IMG/VR virus record: IMGVR_UViG_2681813318_000003
DNA length: 64,000 nt
DNA from: a virus
Lineage: Duplodnaviria > Heunggongvirae > Uroviricota > Caudoviricetes
Strand: one strand, 5' to 3'
In this document: positions 20,901 to 32,592 of the stretch, one piece after another
Layout: every line of letters starts with the position of its first letter
How positions within the stretch are numbered: position 1 is the first letter of the stretch
The notes under the pieces: generated by a model
What the model saw: the letters and a program-made list of their open reading frames with translations, nothing else
The model's database searches: none
Told to the model about the DNA's origin: nothing
Made by a program: the position numbers and the translations under genes

Positions 20901-21455
20901 TGGGGTAGGGTGCGGATAAACCACACTATAGAAGTTGTCTTTTCCACCCGCTGTAATCAGTGTGCTTATGATTTTTGCAAAATCGTTGCGTTGGAACACG
21001 CTACCGATGTCGGAAGTAAGCAGGATGATGTTGCCTTTGGCATATGTAGAAACCAACTGTTCGAGCGAGAGACGCGGTACAAAGTAGAACTGTTCTCGTG
21101 TGTTGGCCGCCGTCATTAGTTCGCAGATGTCGCGATATCCTTTCTCATTTTTAATTAGAGCGGTAAACGAGTAGTTACGTCCTCGCTCTAATGATTCCAT
21201 ACATCCCTTAGATTCTTTAGCAAGTTTAGCCCGGTGCTCGTATGTGGGATCATCAACGATATTTAGTTTCACACCACAAATAACCGCCATGTCGTCACCA
21301 GCGGCACGTTGTAGTGGAATAACACTCGCAATATTCATGCTATCTGCTGAAATTACAGCGGTGTAGCCAGCTTCTCTGGCAATCTTCACCGCGTTTTCTG
21401 CTTTTAAAGCCGACTCCCCAAGTGAGAAGTCAGTTCGAACCATCAGTGCCTTCAT
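17937..21455 (-). CDS. dnaE: DNA polymerase III alpha subunit (DnaE family)
   Basis: 1172 aa; polymerase core motifs [48 protein letters not shown]; N-terminal PHP-like region apparently degenerate. Confidence 0.9.
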   Translation of the reverse strand: [1172 protein letters not shown]

Positions 21456-22967: not shown

Positions 22968-25076
22968 TCACTTTAAAATGATACGAGATAGTTCAGTAAC
23001 TACAGATGAACCAAGACTATCAACGCTCGTTACCAGGGCATGATTTGAGTAAAATCTCTCCGGTGCGTCAGTCATGATGCCAATTGCCATCAAATCAATA
23101 TCAGTCTGCGTTTCAATTTGCTTCGCAACTGAACGCAAATGAGCGTCAAAACCTCTCCCAACAGCCCACGGCGCGCCATCACTCAGAACAAGCATGATCT
23201 TCCTGTCCTCCAAGCGACCGGAAAATAACGATGCAAGGCTGGCTATGCTTTCACCATCCACGTTATTAAGAAGTGGGAATGTGTAGCCTACGCACCCCAT
23301 ACGTGAGCGAACTTCGCGAGAATTTACCTTTTCATTCCAATTTTTGATGATAGGTAGCATTAAAGATTCAAAGCGAGAGAACTCATACTTGACAGCCTTA
23401 AGTTCTCCTGCCGCCATATGACTACCAAATGTAGTGAAGCCGGTGATAATGTTGGGAACATTTATTCGATCAAGGGCATCTGCGATGGTATATGCACTTG
23501 CAAGAGCCAATTGTATCGTTATACCACTCATTGAACCTGATAAATCAATCACTTGTTGAACACAGGCGTTAACGGCTTTAGATTCTTCTTTTTTACGAAA
23601 CACGCGATCATCATTCATTGCTAATCTGTAGATACTAGAACCATGAATGCGCCCCCGACGCTGGCCCGGTATAAACTGAACTCTGTTTCTGCTTGCTATT
23701 GCTCGCTCCAGGTCTTTTGCCAGCGTCGACGAAACACCTGACGAAAGATGCTTTTCAATATATTTGTCGAAGAGCTGGTTGCCTTCAGGAACGATGCGAT
23801 AGCGGCTGATTGGATATCCTCCTAAATCAATATCGGAGAATGTTTTAATAAGCCGTTTGATATGGGCTTCTGCCTGATCAATCGAGCCGATGAAGTCGTA
23901 TGAGCGATTGTATGGCCTGTATTCGCTTTTCGAGCTTTCTGTTAACTCGCTTTTAATCGTTTCGGATAGAGCATCTTCTGTCATGCCTCCGACTTCATCT
24001 TCTATGCTATCCAGCTCCTCTAAAGCCTCTTCCAGACTCATTTTTGACGGAGTTGGAATATCTGAAGAGCCGTCTTCTGTCGTTTTTCTTTTTTCGTGGT
24101 CAGCGATAAATGATTCTGACACCGCGTTATCAGAAGCATCAGAATCTGATACCTCTTTATCATTTTCTGTATCATCGAATATTGTTTCTGATGATTCAGA
24201 ATTATCTGAATCATCACTGTCGTTATTATCATGTTTGTGCTTACTGTGTGATTCTGATTTGATAGATTTGTGATTATCTAACGCTGAGGGTGTCTCATGA
24301 TCTTCGTTGTCTTCATTGTTTTCTCCAGAGGCATCCGTCTGGTCAGCGTCTGAAGGATCGGAAGTTTTTCCCGGAGCTGACTCCTTACCTTTGCTTTCAC
24401 TTTCAGTGTCTTTGAGGATCTTAGCTATGGTCGCAGCCACCTTTACACAATCCTCGGTGCAAGACATGTTACGCACGGCCACATCGATACCATGTTCTTT
24501 TAATAATGAAATTGGTTTCTCAATGACAGGCCAATATTCATCCATGAAATCTACGAACGGTGCTTGGCCATCCCAGGCTCTTACAACCGGACAGAGAAAG
24601 AAGTTTAGAAAAAGCGCGCGCTGATCTTTGCCACAATAAGCAATAGCCTCTGAAGCCTTTGGTTTAAAGACTTTTTCGATTATAAGGCGCTGAGTTGCCA
24701 TCAGATTACGTCTTGTTCCGTTAAAGACCTGACCCATTTTTCGCTCGATGAACACGTCTTCTAAGGCATTCCATAGCGACCAGGAAGGAACGCGTCCTTT
24801 TTCTCTCATTTTGTTGGACACACGAATATCGGTAAACAAAATGTGAGCAACCTCATGATCGAGAAATCCGCGCACAGCATTCATCAATGCCGGTGTTGCG
24901 TTATCCGGGATTGATGGGATGTTTACGAGAATTGGCTCTCCATCATCGTTATAGCGTACATAAGCGTCGTCCCCTCGTTCTGCAACAGGGATGTTTTTAC
25001 CTGAAAGGAGAGCGACTACTCGTTTTACACTGTCACGGAAGTCCTGAACCTCTTTGATAGAACGTTTTTTAGACAT
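22968..25076 (-). CDS. CobT-like von Willebrand factor A domain protein with long acidic Ser/Asp-rich linker
   Basis: 702 aa; C-terminal vWA MIDAS motif DLSGSMSG; central low-complexity acidic region (about aa 220-330). Confidence 0.65.
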   Translation of the reverse strand: MSKKRSIKEVQDFRDSVKRVVALLSGKNIPVAERGDDAYVRYNDDGEPILVNIPSIPDNATPALMNAVRGFLDHEVAHILFTDIRVSNKMREKGRVPSWSLWNALEDVFIERKMGQVFNGTRRNLMATQRLIIEKVFKPKASEAIAYCGKDQRALFLNFFLCPVVRAWDGQAPFVDFMDEYWPVIEKPISLLKEHGIDVAVRNMSCTEDCVKVAATIAKILKDTESESKGKESAPGKTSDPSDADQTDASGENNEDNEDHETPSALDNHKSIKSESHSKHKHDNNDSDDSDNSESSETIFDDTENDKEVSDSDASDNAVSESFIADHEKRKTTEDGSSDIPTPSKMSLEEALEELDSIEDEVGGMTEDALSETIKSELTESSKSEYRPYNRSYDFIGSIDQAEAHIKRLIKTFSDIDLGGYPISRYRIVPEGNQLFDKYIEKHLSSGVSSTLAKDLERAIASRNRVQFIPGQRRGRIHGSSIYRLAMNDDRVFRKKEESKAVNACVQQVIDLSGSMSGITIQLALASAYTIADALDRINVPNIITGFTTFGSHMAAGELKAVKYEFSRFESLMLPIIKNWNEKVNSREVRSRMGCVGYTFPLLNNVDGESIASLASLFSGRLEDRKIMLVLSDGAPWAVGRGFDAHLRSVAKQIETQTDIDLMAIGIMTDAPERFYSNHALVTSVDSLGSSVVTELSRIILK

Positions 25077-25638: not shown

Positions 25639-26025
25639 ATGTCTGATAACAAGATTGAATTTATAGAAAGTCGCTACGCTGCTTTTATCGCAGGGTTGAT
25701 TGAATCCTCACCTATGAGCCAGGCCCAGATAGCCAAAACAATTGGGTATAAAAACGCCAACAACCTTTCTTTAATTAAAAGCGGCAAAATTCCTTTGCCT
25801 ATCGATAAGGTTCGTCCGCTGGCGCTGGCACTGGGTATTGAGCCAAGTCGTCTTATGATGATGGTGCTGGAAGAACGCCAACCCGAACTCGCAGCATTTT
25901 TATACAAAGAAGGCACTGCTCCTCTTAACGAGGACGAAAAACAGGTTCTTGCTGCATATAACGAGCGATTCGGTAAAGAGAAAGGCGCATCACAAAAGGT
26001 TGTTGAGGCCATAAAGTCTCTATGA
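25639..26025 (+). CDS. XRE-family helix-turn-helix transcriptional regulator (candidate repressor)
   Basis: 128 aa; HTH segment MSQAQIAKTIGYKNANNLSLIKSGK; AAAGG RBS; divergent 250 bp control region upstream containing a GGTAAGCACTTACC palindrome. Confidence 0.65.
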   Translation: MSDNKIEFIESRYAAFIAGLIESSPMSQAQIAKTIGYKNANNLSLIKSGKIPLPIDKVRPLALALGIEPSRLMMMVLEERQPELAAFLYKEGTAPLNEDEKQVLAAYNERFGKEKGASQKVVEAIKSL

Positions 26026-27123
26026 AAAATTTACACGAATAAGCTCTGTTGATAGACGATCTCCCTTAAATTTGTGGTCAATTTCGTCTAAATCCGGTTG
26101 CTCTACGATTGATGCGATGTACGTCGAGAAACTTTCTAAGGCGTCTCGCATCTCGTCCATATAATCGTGCCGGTCGTAGACCCGATCTATCCCCTCAAGA
26201 CTGTGGTTCATGATTTTACGTGATACCTCCTGGCTTATGCCTAATGCTGGGAAGTAACTACGCGCAGTACGGCGCAAATCTCGGGGTGTAAATGGCTCAA
26301 GCTCCATCAGTTCTGGTCGTTCCAGAATACGACGTAATGCCTGGGCTATTGCCACTTTAGACATAGGAAGGTCTTTCCCGATTTTTTTATTCGAAGGCAC
26401 GAGCCACTGGCTGTCTTTACCGTATTCGAACAACTCTTCAATGCATGTGCGCATTAATGTGCTTAAAGGCAGCGAATGCTCACGTGCTGACTTGTTTCTC
26501 TTGCCTTGATTCCAAACCCCACGCTTAAGATTGAACTCACTTTTTTTAGCCCGCAGTACTTCGTCAGGTCGTCTTGCTGATACAAGACACAGTCTGGCCG
26601 CCCATTTTGTACCAGCGCACACATTGAAGTAGTCCCATATATTCCAGAACACCCATACCTCTGCGTCAGTCAGCTTCCGCTCGCGGGGCGTGGGCTTTGC
26701 GCCACCGGCAACTTTGTTAAGTGACATATCGTTTAACGGTGACACGTCTATCATCCCCTGGAAGGCGCACCAGCTAAGGAACTGCTTCATCAGAGAGAAA
26801 ACGCGGCGGCCCATAACAATTTTGCCATCCAGTATTAGTGGGTTGACCAGTTGGTTCACCATGAACCTATTAATGTCACTTACTTTTACATCGGCAATGT
26901 GCGGCAAAACATGTATCAAAATACAATGAACAGCGATCTCTGGCCGACGTCTGGTTATCAGCAGAGATAAGCGAGTGAATAACAGGAATGCGTCCGAGAA
27001 TCTCATGTCATTGCTGACCTGGGAGATCATAACGGCCTGCATTTGAGATGCTCTTTCGAGATACTCTATCGCCTCTTTTGAGGTGTTCTCCGCAGCGCGT
27101 GCTCTGTCAAAGCTATTTTTCAT
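26020..27123 (-). CDS. tyrosine site-specific recombinase (integrase/resolvase family)
   Basis: 367 aa; C-terminal catalytic region PRDLRRTARSYF...KIMNHSLEGIDRVYDRHDY (R..H..R..Y arrangement). Confidence 0.8.
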   Translation of the reverse strand: MKNSFDRARAAENTSKEAIEYLERASQMQAVMISQVSNDMRFSDAFLLFTRLSLLITRRRPEIAVHCILIHVLPHIADVKVSDINRFMVNQLVNPLILDGKIVMGRRVFSLMKQFLSWCAFQGMIDVSPLNDMSLNKVAGGAKPTPRERKLTDAEVWVFWNIWDYFNVCAGTKWAARLCLVSARRPDEVLRAKKSEFNLKRGVWNQGKRNKSAREHSLPLSTLMRTCIEELFEYGKDSQWLVPSNKKIGKDLPMSKVAIAQALRRILERPELMELEPFTPRDLRRTARSYFPALGISQEVSRKIMNHSLEGIDRVYDRHDYMDEMRDALESFSTYIASIVEQPDLDEIDHKFKGDRLSTELIRVNFS

Positions 27124-27221: not shown

Positions 27222-27254
27222 AATGATTCCATACATAGTAGGTATGGAATCATT
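27222..27254. other. candidate recombination core site: 13 bp perfect inverted repeat with 7 bp spacer
   Basis: AATGATTCCATAC-ATAGTAG-GTATGGAATCATT, about 100 bp upstream of the recombinase start; lox/dif-like geometry; extra half-site at 27259-27267. Confidence 0.5.
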
Positions 27255-27445
27255 TAAGGTATGGAATTTAAATTCTGTAATATTAGAGGGGCATTACTTC
27301 GGAAATCGTGAACCTTTACATGTGAGGATTATTGTTCTATTTTTGCTGGGACACGTCGTAGCGCCGCCGGGATTATTAGGCTCGATATTGAGATTTTGAG
27401 CAGAGAGTAGGTTAAGAAGAGGCAATGACCGCTATTGCTTTCAGA

Positions 27446-27862
27446 TCAGGAGGCGTGAAAGTTTTCTGCAACGTTTGAAAAATATTTTAGTAGCCTAGTA
27501 TCTCTTGCAGACATGCGAACATGAGCTGGAGTGACTAACCCCATCAGCAAATAACGACCGTTCTCCCACATATGCTCGGTATAGATCAGATAGTGATCTG
27601 AAGTTCGGTTGTAGTTTTCTTGCCTTACACTCCAGGTTAACTGGAAATGTAAATTTACGTGAATATGTTGGACGTTAGCGTCAACGGCAAACGGAGGAAA
27701 ATCGAATGGCGCATCTCTACCAAGAAGATTGGACGGGTTGCCAGTTGATTTGTAGGTAATGAACTCAGTTTTGAGCTGATTTTCTAGATCAGGATAAACG
27801 GCAAAAGTAGGTTGAAAAAACTCTACCCATGTCTCTTGACTGTATTCAGCCGTTAATGCCAT
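27446..27862 (-). CDS. YafO-like type II toxin (ribosome-dependent mRNA interferase family)
   Basis: 138 aa; motif series FITYKSTGNP..GRDAPFD, VQHIHV, NYNRTSDHYLIY, LLMGLVTPAH, ARDTRL, AENF matches E. coli YafO as recalled from memory (needs HMM confirmation). Confidence 0.5.
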   Translation of the reverse strand: MALTAEYSQETWVEFFQPTFAVYPDLENQLKTEFITYKSTGNPSNLLGRDAPFDFPPFAVDANVQHIHVNLHFQLTWSVRQENYNRTSDHYLIYTEHMWENGRYLLMGLVTPAHVRMSARDTRLLKYFSNVAENFHAS

Positions 27863-28401
27863 TTGACTGCAGCCTTGTTGCCTGTCGCCAATAGATGATT
27901 CATGGCAACGAGGTTTACGCCAGAGTCACGTACTACAGAGGTGCGTGTAATCTGGTCGATCAGATTTAGATAATTTTTGGCCGCAATACTGACCATTTTA
28001 ATAGCTTTAAAGAAGGCAAACTCTACAGCGTTTTTGTCGTAAGACAAAATGACATCTTTTTCAGGTAACATCAAAACGAAAGATTCTGCGATTGCGGCTA
28101 CATGAATCGTTTGATTTTTAATTTCTTCCGCTACATTGACAGCAGCAAAAAAATCAGTGTCAGCATAACGAGCAAGTTCAGCGCGGCTTGAGCGCAGTTC
28201 TGTCGCTAGCTCATTAAGAGCTGCTGTAAGATCGCTGATGTCGGTTTTGTTGACTCTAGCGCCCATCTCATAAACCCGCTCTACAATAGTGGGCTGGCAC
28301 GCAACCGCTTTTGGTTGCGGCTGGATGCTGGCAAGAACCAGTGCCACTGCTGCCTGTAAATGCTGGATTTTAAATTTCACGATAGACTCCATAATCGTCA
28401 T
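27853..28401 (-). CDS. hypothetical protein, candidate cognate antitoxin
   Basis: 182 aa ORF overlapping the toxin start by 10 nt (operon); does not resemble YafN/Phd-type antitoxins; start codon uncertain. Confidence 0.45.
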   Translation of the reverse strand: MTIMESIVKFKIQHLQAAVALVLASIQPQPKAVACQPTIVERVYEMGARVNKTDISDLTAALNELATELRSSRAELARYADTDFFAAVNVAEEIKNQTIHVAAIAESFVLMLPEKDVILSYDKNAVEFAFFKAIKMVSIAAKNYLNLIDQITRTSVVRDSGVNLVAMNHLLATGNKAAVKWH

Positions 28402-28528
28402 TTCTCGACGAGGCGTAGTATTCTACTACTGAATTTAACTATAAGCTAAAAAAACTTGGTTGCATAGACGACTGAGACTGCAAAACACGAAATGAAAAAT
28501 TAAAGGCCGCTTTCACGGCCCTTTAAAG

Positions 28529-28774
28529 TCAAAGTGTGCTGACATATGCGGCCAGCTCTGTGTATCCGCCAATAGGTTGGCCATCGATCAGCACTTGGGG
28601 GATAGTCTCTACCGGTTTACCAACAATTTCGCTAAGTTTTTCCTTGTCGATACCGGCAGTTGTGATGTCGATGTACTCATAATCACCGTAGCCATGTCCC
28701 TTTAGTTGCTTCGCCAGCTCGACCGCACGTTTGCAGTATGAGCAGTTATCTCGTCCGTAGATAACGACTTTCAT
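28529..28774 (-). CDS. glutaredoxin (RNR electron donor type)
   Basis: CSYC active site near N-terminus and PQVLIDGQPIGGY C-terminal motif; start set at ATG 28774 (track uses upstream GTG). Confidence 0.85.
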   Translation of the reverse strand: MKVVIYGRDNCSYCKRAVELAKQLKGHGYGDYEYIDITTAGIDKEKLSEIVGKPVETIPQVLIDGQPIGGYTELAAYVSTL

Positions 28775-28890
28775 CACTTCACCTCGTGCAACTGCTGTTC
28801 ATTAACGATGATTGTGTCAATTTCGTAGCCGTGGATGCGTTTCACTGCCTGACGAGCTGCGCGACGCGCCTGTTTACGTTTGTTTCCCAT
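28771..28890 (-). CDS. small basic protein (39 aa)
   Basis: Manual translation MGNKRKQARRAARQAVKRIHGYEIDTIIVNEQQLHEVK; AAAGGA RBS; stop overlaps the glutaredoxin start (TGATG); below track cutoff. Confidence 0.3.
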
Positions 28891-28991: not shown

Positions 28992-30329
28992 GTGAGGTTG
29001 ACGCACCAGAACCGGCAAGACAGCTTTAAACTAGCTGAAATGGTATGGTCGATTAGGTATCATTCAGTTTCAAAATTAACCAAAGACACTGATAAAATGC
29101 CTGTTTTGTTAATCCTCATACTTGGGACAGTGATGATTATTTTCTGGGATACCGTCAAGGAAAACGTAGAGGTCATAGGTACACTTGCCACTTCACTTGC
29201 ATTTTTCGCCACAGCATGGGCCGCTTACGAGGCAAGGCATAGTGCAAAGGCAGCAATGAGGGCTACTAGGCTGACGGCAGCTTCACTCCTTGAAATGAAA
29301 AAAGCCTCTTTTAAGGAATGGTACGGCATATTACTTGAACAGCATAATAGATTACTTGAGGATGTTAACAAGACCTTGCAGGATGATAGGGAACTTAATG
29401 CAAAACTGGGAATGAATCTCATCAAGGCTATTTATTACCATGTAACCAAAAACTCCGTTTACATTAAATATATTAACCACATAGTTTTAATTCTTGATTA
29501 TTTAGATAAAGACTTCTATTCGCCGTCATCAGCCGATTATGAAAAGAGAGCTTACATAGAACAGCTGCGCAACAGCATTAGTCCTAATGTAAGCCTGCTG
29601 ATAGCTACATTCGGCCTTAATATTGACACTAATAAAACCTATGACGCAAAGAGACTTTACAGTCTGCTAAGCAAGTATAACTTCTTCGAAGGCCAACTTT
29701 TTTTTGAAGAAGCAATATCGAAAGTTCATTATTTGGACTCTTATGCTGCTGTGATATTTGATAACGAATACCGAAAAGATGTAGAGTTTTATGTTGAAGA
29801 AATGGTTCGAGGTCGTGAGACCCCTAAAATCGATACAAGATACCGTCATTTAAGGGCTACGTTCGCAATTCTGTGGTCTTACAACAACCCCTGCCGACAA
29901 CATTTGCTTCAAAGATTTAATGACCTACCTATGCATATGCGAAACAGCATTGAGCTGAGGATGGAAAATGCAGCCGATAAAGTAGCTGAGTTCAACTCTT
30001 TGTTACCTGGTTTTATAGGCTGGGAGCTTAGAATCGCAGGTAATAAAGTGAGGGTGATCAAGGATGAAAAACATTTAAAGAGGCTAATAAAACTCAACGA
30101 TAAGTATCCTATTTCCCCCCGAGAGAGAAGTATTCTGTTAACCAATGGTATCACCAATAGATTCGCTGATGAGATTAAAAATAGTCTGTCTATGTATAAG
30201 TTAGAAAATGCCTATTTAGCACTCAACTCTAATCAACACAAAGAAAAGGTGATTGATGAAATTGTTGTTGAAGTTGAGAAAATTGTCGATAAATTTAAAG
30301 CAGAACTTGATTCTTTAGATTTCAACTAA
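28992..30329 (+). CDS. hypothetical two-transmembrane-helix protein in an AT-rich plus-strand island
   Basis: 445 aa ORF; two N-terminal hydrophobic helices then about 350 aa soluble domain; markedly AT-rich relative to flanks; true start may be internal (for example ATG 29097 MPVLLILILG). Confidence 0.6.
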   Translation: MRLTHQNRQDSFKLAEMVWSIRYHSVSKLTKDTDKMPVLLILILGTVMIIFWDTVKENVEVIGTLATSLAFFATAWAAYEARHSAKAAMRATRLTAASLLEMKKASFKEWYGILLEQHNRLLEDVNKTLQDDRELNAKLGMNLIKAIYYHVTKNSVYIKYINHIVLILDYLDKDFYSPSSADYEKRAYIEQLRNSISPNVSLLIATFGLNIDTNKTYDAKRLYSLLSKYNFFEGQLFFEEAISKVHYLDSYAAVIFDNEYRKDVEFYVEEMVRGRETPKIDTRYRHLRATFAILWSYNNPCRQHLLQRFNDLPMHMRNSIELRMENAADKVAEFNSLLPGFIGWELRIAGNKVRVIKDEKHLKRLIKLNDKYPISPRERSILLTNGITNRFADEIKNSLSMYKLENAYLALNSNQHKEKVIDEIVVEVEKIVDKFKAELDSLDFN

Positions 30330-30508: not shown

Positions 30509-30595
30509 TGGCGGAGAGTAATGGAATCGAACCATCATCGCTTGCGCAATGGGACGGTTTTCAAGACCGCTTGAGCACCATGCTCCCTACTCTCC
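30509..30595 (-). tRNA. tRNA-Ser (anticodon UGA), type II with long variable arm
   Basis: Manual cloverleaf: acceptor GGAGAGT/ACTCTCC, anticodon stem-loop GCGGT-CUUGAAA-ACCGT (as in E. coli serT), T-arm GATGG-TTCGATT-CCATT, encoded CCA. Confidence 0.7.
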
Positions 30596-30915
30596 GGCCG
30601 TTGTGGTGGCCGGTACTGAACTCCGACACAGGGTTGTAGCAAACCCCGCAAAGCGCGCACTACTGTAGTTGCGGCACATCAGCCTGTGCATTCATCACAA
30701 CGGTAAGATCACTACCTTTCGACCAGTCATTGTGCACATGAACGACGATTAACCGTAATGATATTATCGTTGTGTTGTGAAGCCAGATGCTTATCTTCTG
30801 GTTGCTTCAAAGAGCTGCACTTCCTCACAACGGTAAGAGCACTGGTCTGACTCTATCGATTTACGGCCTTGTGGGTCAGTATCGCCGATTCGCCCAATGC
30901 TCTTACCTGTTGTGT

Positions 30916-30991
30916 TGGTGCCGGTTAACGGACTTGAACCGCTGGCCATTCGCTTACAAAGCGACTGCTCTACCAACTGAGCTAAACCGGC
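30916..30991 (-). tRNA. tRNA-Thr (anticodon UGU)
   Basis: 76 nt: GCCGGTT acceptor, D-arm GCTC-AGTTGGTA-GAGC, anticodon loop TTTGTAA, T-arm AGCGG-TTCAAGT-CCGTT, encoded CCA. Confidence 0.8.
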
Positions 30992-30995
30992 AATT

Positions 30996-31082
30996 TGGTG
31001 GGGAGTGATGGAGTCGAACCACCCGAGTCGCCATGACAGTAGATTTACAGTCTACACCGCTACCTCTACGGACTAACTCCCC
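30996..31082 (-). tRNA. tRNA-Tyr (anticodon GUA), type II
   Basis: 87 nt: acceptor GGGGAGT/ACTCCCC, anticodon stem-loop GTAGA-CTGTAAA-TCTAC, long variable arm, T-arm GGTGG-TTCGACT-CCATC, encoded CCA. Confidence 0.8.
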
Positions 31083-31087
31083 TAAAT

Positions 31088-31162
31088 TGGCGATGGTGGG
31101 TGGATTCGAACCACCGACCAGTTGGTTAACAGCCAACTGCTCTACCGCTGAGCTACACCATC
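31088..31162 (-). tRNA. tRNA-Asn (anticodon GUU)
   Basis: 75 nt: acceptor GATGGTG/CACCATC, D-arm GCTC-AGCGGTA-GAGC, anticodon stem-loop GTTGG-CTGTTAA-CCAAC, T-arm GGTGG-TTCGAAT-CCACC, encoded CCA. Confidence 0.85.
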
Positions 31163-31940
31163 AATTCAGCACTGCCAGTATTTATTACTCAACAGTGCCA
31201 ATCGCGACGGTTTAGTTTCTGCCAGGAAACGCACCGCTACTTGCACTTTTCGTTAGTGCCAGACGCTTTCGACTTCGCTCAATAGTAGAAGGCAAAATCT
31301 TTAAGTAGATGATGTTTCTGAGGACAGCACCTACTTTGTAATTTATACAATGTGATGTATGGAATCATTTGTTGTGAAAACAGGCACCAATGGCAACAGT
31401 GGTTAAACCTACACAACAATCCCGTCTTCACAACGTTGAGGCCACTACTCCGATTGAATGTTTGCCCAACATGTTACATATCAACGCTCGCCGGTATCTC
31501 TGTGAATAGAACCTTAGAATTGATAAAAATGTAATGGCCTCAACGTTGTGTGCTGGCTAACCATACCAGCCGGGCTACGTCGCCGCTTTTTAACCCAGTA
31601 TAAACGACATAATTGAACAAAATGACGTAACAGGATGGGCGGTCAGTGGCTAAGAATCCGGGAGTCATATGGAGTTGAAAATATACCGACCGCCCATTCT
31701 GTTACTTCATCGGAGGGAACACTCATGTTCCCTCCTGCGTTCTGCAATCACACTCGCTCAGTGTGTCCCATTTCGGTAACGAGGCTGGAAACTGACCTCG
31801 CTGGTGTTTGGCTTATTAGGCTACTGCCAGATAGACTTCTTCGTTTGCACTTGTATTTAAGTTCAAACAGTCGCGTCTCAACGAAAACAAAGTCATCTTA
31901 TACATAAAAGATAAGTAAGTAAATACTTATCACTATGTTT

Positions 31941-32231: not shown

Positions 32232-32376
32232 TTTCTAACCTTTGTTTCATGAACTACCCGATACACACGCTTTCCGATGCACAGTGTTTTGGTTTTAAGT
32301 TCCTGCTTAATTAAATCACGACAGATGCCGAAGCCGATAAGGAAGCCACCCATAAAAGCCAATGAGATGTATGGAA

Positions 32377-32592
32377 TCATTTTAACACTCCTGATTCTAC
32401 TAATTGCTGTAGCAATACTTTCCCTTTATCAGTTAACTGGTAGTTGGCCGAGCACCACGTTTCAGAAACGTTTGCAACCAATCCTAAACGCTCTAACTTA
32501 GCTCGCGTTTTAGGCTTCCAGTACTCAGGGAACTCCGGCCACTTACTTATTTCATGAAGCGTTTCTTTCTCCCGTTTACTTAATACGATCAT
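32377..32592 (-). CDS. hypothetical protein
   Basis: 71 aa; start overlaps the ligase stop (coupled); 3' end overlaps a copy of the GTATGGAATCATTT repeat. Confidence 0.45.
   Translation of the reverse strand: MIVLSKREKETLHEISKWPEFPEYWKPKTRAKLERLGLVANVSETWCSANYQLTDKGKVLLQQLVESGVLK

Follow-up and report, generated by a model that had tools for sequence, protein, structure and literature searches.

The window analyzed here is a 64,000-nucleotide stretch of DNA from the IMG/VR virus record IMGVR_UViG_2681813318_000003, an SSU5/pHCM2-type Escherichia coli phage-plasmid. On its minus strand, a gene for a YafO-family toxin of the phage/plasmid subtype (27446-27862, 138 aa) is preceded by a partner gene for a putative antitoxin (27853-28380, 175 aa), and the two genes overlap by 10 nt. 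The pair is probably a toxin-antitoxin (TA)-like module for addiction or abortive infection, in which the antitoxin belongs to a family not described before. The new elements are the partner family and the consistent pairing of phage-type YafO with a long helical partner instead of YafN. The toxin half is not new: public records already annotate a YafO-family toxin.

Conserved organization and selective loss of the toxin

The same gene order and the 10-nt overlap were found in every intact locus among 12 from genomes and 7 from viruses, and both were kept in pairs that had diverged to 19-43% identity. The overlap persisted down to 19-29% identity for the partner and 36-44% for the toxin. The partner relative P0080 (29% identity) is located directly upstream of a gene for a 138-aa YafO-family protein (44%) with the 10-nt overlap, in the same slot between grx and the integrase gene of a divergent SSU5-like element. 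Similarly, the relative P0091 (19% identity) is followed by a clear YafO homologue, again with an overlap of 10 nt. The overlap of the partner stop and the toxin start (ATGGCATTAA) occupies 27853-27862 on the minus strand of the window and is unchanged in every intact locus, even in the distant L006/L007, L010/L011, and L034-L036. Within the minus-strand junction sequence aaATGGCATTAAcg, the partner stop codon falls inside the first toxin codons. The 10-nt overlap suggests that translation of the partner and the toxin is coupled.

Where the rate of synonymous substitution (dS) was unsaturated, the ratio of nonsynonymous to synonymous rates (dN/dS) was 0.06-0.15 for both genes, which indicates purifying selection. 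The amino acid divergence of the partner and that of the toxin were correlated (r = 0.97, from comparisons that are phylogenetically non-independent), with the partner diverging faster than the toxin.

Two of three Pseudescherichia contigs (L019 and L021) carried a clean deletion of about 392 bp that removed nearly the whole toxin open reading frame (ORF) and left the partner intact, joining it to the last toxin residues (...EDFHASAP); the pair was intact in the third contig. The locus was found in 29 of 5,426 complete E. coli genomes and was always plasmid-borne. Both genes were present in 15 of these loci and the partner only in the other 14; none contained the toxin only. In the partner-only E. 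coli loci the promoter region was kept, the partner lacked about 13 C-terminal codons, and there was no toxin; this truncated partner is predicted to be unable to bind the toxin. Because the partner was kept and the toxin deleted, never the reverse, the direction of loss fits a downstream gene that is harmful without the upstream gene. In its conserved coupling, its co-divergence, and the toxin losses that the partner survived, the pair behaves as a single selected unit, as TA pairs do. This agrees with an earlier reading made from the sequence alone, in which the pair had been proposed as a unit.

Identity of the toxin

The toxin matched the Pfam profile YafO_toxin (PF13957) with an E value of 1.7e-20 and 73.5 bits, compared with a gathering score of 25 bits, over profile positions 2-100 of 101. 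The score against the NCBIfam equivalog for E. coli YafO (NF007377 / PRK09885) was 53.7 bits, under the cut-off of 153. The protein is 29% identical to YafO of E. coli K-12 and has conserved motifs in common with it. Since the PF13957 threshold was passed, the equivalog cut-off was missed, and the identity is 29%, these comparisons classify the toxin as a member of the YafO family that is not an orthologue of E. coli YafO. Its fold is that of RelE/HigB, within the RelE/ParE superfamily (BECR). Among 26 diverse members including canonical YafO, residues L29, F33, K37, G47, D49, L91, Y93, and F134 were invariant, and all are kept in the toxin; H67, P111, and A131 were near-invariant in the same set. 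The sequence-only reading had assigned the 138-aa protein to the YafO family from its motifs, and both the profile scan and the fold bear out this assignment. More than 100 plasmid records carry the PGAP name 'YafO family toxin' for the toxin homologue. No structure of YafO was found in a search of the PDB, and the toxin had no match at E ≤1 among the defence models of PADLOC-DB v2.

Start codon and upstream region of the partner gene

The two minus-strand ORFs of the sequence-only reading, 27446-27862 (138 aa) and 27853-28401 (182 aa), were located at these positions with the 10-nt overlap. The length proposed for the partner was revised. The longest ORF extends to an ATG at 28401, giving 182 aa. 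The homologues and the PGAP annotations begin at MKFKIQ and a Shine-Dalgarno (SD) sequence precedes the GTG at 28380, so this GTG is the likely start and the partner is probably 175 aa long. The SD sequence is GGAG in the window and GGGAGG in Erwinia.

The conserved 5' region of the cassette extends over 28381-28465 on the minus strand and contains the SD sequence at 28387-28390 and a -10-like hexamer, TAGAAT, at 28420-28425, with a T-run before the hexamer. Across cassettes on unrelated replicons this block, which covers about 85 nt ahead of the partner and holds the TAnAAT -10-like hexamer and the SD sequence, was near-identical, and the cassette therefore seems to bring its own expression signals. 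The assignment of a promoter upstream of 28380 is putative, and a strict sigma-70 scan called no promoter in the cassette 5' region. A palindrome over the -10-like hexamer, GTAGTA-gaa-TACTAC, was considered as an operator and rejected, as its conservation does not extend to other cassettes. No well-conserved operator palindrome upstream of the partner was found when the cassette upstream regions were compared.

Family and predicted fold of the partner

No match above threshold was found for the partner in Pfam, NCBIfam, PADLOC, PHROGs, or the PDB sequences, and no defence model of PADLOC-DB v2 matched it at E ≤1. It had no detectable similarity to YafN, with which no alignment was obtained, and no PhdYeFM match in Pfam. 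Scans with the Pfam and NCBIfam hidden Markov models (HMMs) gave no helix-turn-helix (HTH), ribbon-helix-helix (RHH), AbrB, or Phd domain. Weak matches to LepB_N (16.8 bits), DUF7517, a group II intron maturase, and a DARPin in the PDB were far under the cut-offs and were dismissed. By these searches the partner is unrelated to YafN/Phd, in line with the sequence-only reading, which had noted no resemblance to YafN/Phd-type antitoxins, and it belongs to no described family. Because it has no recognisable DNA-binding domain, the partner is not a classical type II antitoxin of the Phd, RHH, or HTH kind.

The partner family is small. A word-indexed search gave 39 clusters at 90% identity, all from Enterobacterales. 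An exhaustive profile search over 1.84 billion representatives gave 24 relatives at E ≤0.001.

The AlphaFold2 (AF2) model of the partner is all-helical, with a predicted local distance difference test (pLDDT) score of 81. A long three-helix core at residues 45-145 (pLDDT about 90) is accompanied by a C-terminal helix at 157-174 and by an N-terminal hydrophobic helix at 5-19, which is connected to the core by a low-confidence Pro/Gln-rich linker. Foldseek comparison with the PDB and BFVD returned generic helical bundles only (best E values of 0.36 and 0.19, TM scores below 0.4), which are uninformative.

Two branches of the YafO family

A YafO profile search separated two groups. Canonical YafO proteins have 131-134 aa and are encoded on chromosomes, with the gene for a PhdYeFM (YafN-type) antitoxin of 95-97 aa in front. 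The YafO proteins of phages and plasmids have 136-146 aa, and here the position of YafN is taken by a helical protein of 174-202 aa that lacks annotation. The phage/plasmid group includes the window cassette, a Klebsiella SSU5-like pair, gp17-gp18 of HK639, gp093-gp092 of the Pseudomonas phage YMC11/02/R656, a pair in an Oceanisphaera prophage, and the pair of CP059946. The gp17-gp18 pair of the lambdoid phage HK639 lies among tail genes beside a lipoprotein gene, and the Oceanisphaera prophage pair lies between tail genes.

The HK639, YMC11/02/R656, and Klebsiella (174 + 138 aa) pairs, which involve PHROGs 8416, 22162, and 1651, share the architecture of the window pair: the gene for a YafO-family protein (138-146 aa) is immediately preceded by that for a helical protein (174-190 aa). 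Their proteins are annotated as 'hypothetical protein' or 'unknown function'. The Klebsiella SSU5-like pair occupies the slot that the window pair has, with grxA on one side and the integrase gene on the other, and its genes likewise overlap by 10 nt, whereas in HK639 and the Pseudomonas phages the pair is located elsewhere in the genome.

The partners in these phage pairs are remote homologues of the window partner, mainly over the C-terminal 50-120 residues and at identities of no more than 30%. The profile of the partner family aligned with HK639_17 at 81% probability in hhalign (E = 1.3e-5, 117 columns). HK639_17 in turn matched YMC11 gp093 (E = 6e-5) and the Klebsiella partner (E = 6e-4) over the C-terminal 45-50 residues or so, and the Klebsiella partner had weak matches to PHROGs 22162 and 8416. 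The link from YMC11 gp093 to the window partner is transitive only, via HK639_17 and phrog_8416. Homology of the partner to the 191-aa Oceanisphaera protein (hhalign probability 4.6%) and to the 202-aa CP059946 protein (0.3%) was unsupported. All PHROGs of the long partners are listed as 'unknown function', and none of these proteins has a Pfam family.

The only part shared by the partners of phage-type YafO is a C-terminal motif, L-I-x-Q-I-T ... D/N-x-x-A-L/M-x-x-L-x-x-x-G-N/T. The C-terminal helices of the window partner carry it in the form L-I-D-Q-I-T ... A-M-x-x-L-L-x-x-G-N-x-A-A-x-W. This motif is the best candidate for a toxin-binding element.

Comparison with known toxin-antitoxin systems

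The type II system YafN-YafO of E. coli K-12 (dinB-yafN-yafO-yafP) resembles the window pair in its PF13957 toxin, the common motifs, the antidote-then-toxin order, and the close or overlapping genes. The differences are the 29% toxin identity given above, an upstream helical partner of about 175 aa in place of the 97-aa Phd/YefM-type YafN, and a location on phage-plasmids and plasmids, outside the SOS-regulated dinB operon. The ribosome-dependent mRNA interferase systems HigB/HigA, RelE/RelB, and YoeB/YefM show 6-20% sequence identity, and their antitoxins carry HTH, RHH, or Phd DNA-binding domains, unlike the window partner. Phd-Doc of the phage-plasmid P1 is a functional analogy, a toxin-antidote pair on a plasmid-maintained phage (PMC7969092), and its proteins are unrelated to those of the window. 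By analogy with Phd-Doc, the window pair may have a stabilisation role.

Proposed mechanism

In the favored explanation, the pair is a self-contained module that belongs to the accessory cargo in a variable slot of the phage-plasmid. A single promoter upstream of 28380 probably drives both genes. Judging from the anatomy of the locus, the 10-nt stop/start overlap would allow toxin synthesis only after that of the partner and would keep the amount of toxin low. The toxin would act as an mRNA endonuclease of the RelE/HigB fold that halts translation, an activity proposed from that of E. coli YafO. The partner is predicted to be the cognate antitoxin, whose conserved C-terminal helices would most likely bind the toxin directly and so neutralise it. 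When the element is lost, or when a phage shuts down host expression, breakdown of the partner would release the toxin and lead to cell arrest. Such an arrest would provide the phage-plasmid with post-segregational stabilisation, cause abortive infection, or do both. The sequence-only reading had offered an addiction module or a defence or abortive-infection pair; the TA-like behaviour of the unit is supported, and the sequence analysis does not separate the two alternatives.

Several observations weigh against this mechanism. The partner has no DNA-binding fold, so that the usual type II autoregulation is left unaccounted for. Its N-terminus resembles a Sec signal peptide, and an exported protein is hard to reconcile with neutralisation of a cytoplasmic ribonuclease (RNase). 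PADLOC had no model match for either protein and thus gives no direct support for a defence role. The toxin was lost in at least two independent deletions, but the losses may represent no more than two or three such events.

N-terminus of the partner and alternative explanations

The partner N-terminus MKFKIQHLQAAVALVLASIQPQPKAVAC consists of a positively charged start followed by a 10-residue hydrophobic stretch with a mean Kyte-Doolittle value of 2.7, which matches the hydropathy of the OmpA and DsbA signal peptides. The charged-then-hydrophobic layout was kept in relatives at 19-29% identity, and many family members have a Cys shortly after the hydrophobic stretch. Within the close family this N-terminal segment is the most conserved part of the partner (entropy of 0.19 bits versus 0.5-0.9 elsewhere), and the constraint acts on the protein, since synonymous changes are present. 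The hydrophobic N-terminus is weaker in HK639_17 and absent from the 202-aa partner of CP059946. A lipoprotein was considered and rejected, as the residues before the Cys are unlike a lipobox and some members have another residue instead of the Cys. The segment might serve as a helix for interaction or oligomerisation, as a degradation signal, or as a genuine signal for export or anchoring.

A genuine export or anchoring signal is the starting point of the main alternative explanation, which we regard as unlikely and in which an envelope-targeted partner, either a cleaved Sec substrate or a membrane-tethered protein, controls the toxin in a way that goes beyond a simple cytoplasmic antidote. 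The partner might sense phage DNA injection or superinfection and release the toxin, or export might make the partner short-lived; the module would then be mainly a prophage exclusion or abortive-infection system. The signal-peptide-like layout at 19-29% identity, with a hydrophobicity equal to that of real signal peptides, and the Cys in many members are in favor of such a role. So are the N-terminal helix of the AF2 model, which is less confident than the core and joined to it by the low-confidence linker, the moron positions of relatives (HK639 gp17-gp18 by a lipoprotein gene and the Oceanisphaera pair amid tail genes), and the colicin M, Acb2/Tad1-like, and Sequestin genes that form the neighbouring cargo in related elements. 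However, the hydrophobic stretch of about 12 residues is too short for a transmembrane helix, and a conservation higher than anywhere else in the protein would be unusual for a signal peptide. The non-lipobox motifs that precede the Cys, the weak or missing hydrophobic N-terminus in HK639_17 and CP059946, and the lack of a PADLOC match also speak against it. The more general proposal, that phage-type YafO is governed by an envelope-directed partner family and that toxin release is tied to export status or to envelope perturbation at phage entry, is given a slightly lower chance still. If true, it would be a new coupling of an envelope signal to a cytoplasmic RNase, spread by morons in temperate phages of Enterobacterales and Pseudomonas.

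The partner could instead be a co-factor, a chaperone, or a second effector required by the YafO-like protein. The toxin would then be intrinsically weak or restrained by something else, such as a host factor or a small element that lacks annotation. In favor of this, the partner is roughly double the size of classical antitoxins and has no DNA-binding domain, and strict co-occurrence would also be expected of an obligate two-component effector. The patterns of gene loss point the other way, as partner-only loci persist with intact frames and no toxin-only locus was found, an antidote-like asymmetry. The partner also holds the position that YafN has in canonical loci. Moreover, no third conserved element was found: the similarity between cassettes starts about 100 nt ahead of the partner and does not continue past the toxin stop codon. 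The cassette also gave no candidate for an RNA antitoxin, with no Rfam match and no tandem repeats; a type III or other RNA antitoxin is for this reason unlikely. We consider the co-factor explanation improbable. A meaningless adjacency, with a decaying YafO pseudogene beside an unrelated ORF, has nothing in its favor beyond the missing annotation of the partner and is hardly credible, given that both ORFs are intact and under purifying selection and that the order and overlap are conserved in very divergent pairs on several kinds of replicon.

Distribution of the cassette

Homologous cassettes with 77-88% DNA identity were found in 169 PLSDB plasmids, mainly from Enterobacter, Escherichia, and Klebsiella. 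These plasmids were mostly non-mobilisable (108), the others being conjugative (48) or mobilisable (13). The pair is thus carried by some 130-170 plasmids of Enterobacterales, with conjugative IncF plasmids among them. Cassettes were also present on chromosomal-size contigs of Pantoea, Leclercia, Pseudescherichia, and Erwinia and on IMG/VR viral contigs. The similarity between cassettes on unrelated replicons was restricted to the two ORFs and about 85-115 nt upstream. The pair and its upstream block move as a cassette among SSU5-like phage-plasmids, IncF conjugative plasmids, and chromosomal contigs.

In one Enterobacter plasmid, which is conjugative and of the IncFIA/IncFII type (L003, NZ_CP019890.1, 3818-5935), the cassette adjoins a different tyrosine recombinase gene. 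This recombinase has 330 aa; its gene flanks the toxin side and is read toward the cassette. That recombinase genes are found beside the cassette repeatedly may be relevant to cassette mobility.

Genomic setting and the variable slot

The local order in the window is a CobT/VWA gene, a small ORF, an HTH regulator gene, a tyrosine integrase gene (26020-27123), the toxin-partner pair, grxA (28529-28777), an ORF of 445 aa, and a tRNA cluster. In the closest plasmid, pSTEC388_1, the pair is absent and grxA comes right after the integrase gene, separated from it by 71 bp of unrelated filler sequence. BLAST similarity to this plasmid ends at 27254 and restarts at 28520. By these breakpoints, the pair is a 1,265-bp insertion/deletion cassette (27255-28519).

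The integrase-side border of the variable slot is a 16-1-16 palindrome, AATGATTCCATACATA g TAGGTATGGAATCATT, at 27222-27254. The same palindrome was found at the same slot border in L002, L004, L038, and L040, despite the differing slot contents. The opposite border is the intrinsic terminator of grxA (28502-28523, minus strand), which was identified by a terminator scan and coincides with the breakpoint at 28520. The E. coli SSU5-like plasmid CP059946.1 (L038, 2799-3827) has a different pair in this slot, composed of a 202-aa protein (phrog_13546) and, after it, a YafO-family protein of 136 aa with only 29% identity to the window toxin. The slot between the palindrome and grxA looks like a hotspot in which alternative YafO-type modules replace each other. 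A Gp49-family (HigB-like) gene was considered as slot content in related elements and rejected, since it sits across grxA, outside the slot.

The 13-mer AATGATTCCATAC occurs five times in the window, compared with 0.11 copies expected by chance, at 21190-21202 (+), 27222-27234 (+), 27242-27254 (-), 31357-31369 (-), and 32369-32381 (-). Two of the copies make up the 16-1-16 palindrome upstream of the integrase gene. The copies may act as dispersed operators for a repressor, as in P1, or as binding sites for a recombinase.

The gene for the HTH regulator, a putative repressor (25639-26025, plus strand), is convergent with the integrase gene (minus strand), and their 3' ends overlap by 6 nt. The integrase matched Phage_integrase at a modest 40 bits. 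Its role in a plasmid prophage may be dimer resolution or recombination associated with the slot, and not integration into a chromosome. The CobT/VWA protein (702 aa, 22968-25076, minus strand) has an acidic Ser/Asp/Glu-rich low-complexity insert at about residues 220-330, and its weak PADLOC match to DrmE (E = 0.0014) is probably spurious.

The 445-aa ORF (28992-30329, plus strand), located between grxA and the tRNA cluster, has a hydrophobic N-terminal region and matches phrog_18168 (unknown function) with E = 3e-175. It had no match in Pfam, NCBIfam, or PADLOC. It is missing in some relatives, such as pTB212, and may be further variable cargo. The tRNA cluster contains four genes at 30509-31162 on the minus strand (Ser-TGA, Thr-TGT, Tyr-GTA, and Asn-GTT), and parts of it are about 85% identical to the tRNA regions of P1, P7, and D6.

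Genes for Sequestin and an Acb2/Tad1-like hairpin protein (anti-defence families), for colicin M, and for a microcin-like protein are located near the pair in L006/L007 and L034-L036, which are divergent SSU5-like elements from metagenomes and Klebsiella. This region of the SSU5-like phage-plasmids concentrates genes for conflict among bacteria, phages, and competitors.

Relation to published work and significance

YafO is described as a small family of the BECR-fold RelE/ParE superfamily with antitoxin-then-toxin gene order, whose members inhibit translation by degrading mRNA, and its ribosome dependence is debated (PMC11980606). The YafO of Pseudomonas prophages was reported as a lone or incomplete system (PMC12066637), and the YafO of a Pseudomonas tailocin cluster was likewise reported as lone or incomplete (PMC4684702). 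The shell genome of the SSU5 group of phage-plasmids carries TA and defence cargo; the window pair is not mentioned in either of the two studies concerned (PMC7969092; bioRxiv 10.1101/2025.09.12.675607). Literature searches gave no study describing a non-YafN partner for YafO or the partners of phage-type YafO. Surveys of plasmids and prophages listed the YafO of mobile elements as orphan or incomplete because this distinct branch always travels with an unrelated, unannotated helical partner. YafO is among the least-studied toxins of the RelE superfamily and, to our knowledge, has been known only with YafN.

Recognition of the partner family would lead to corrected annotations in more than 100 clinical plasmids of Enterobacter, Klebsiella, and E. 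coli and in several phages, and it would add an antitoxin family without a DNA-binding domain. The conserved signal-peptide-like N-terminus of the partner could indicate an unusual control mechanism. As a compact unit of 1 kb, the cassette is suited to tests of phage-plasmid stabilisation versus the exclusion of competing phages.

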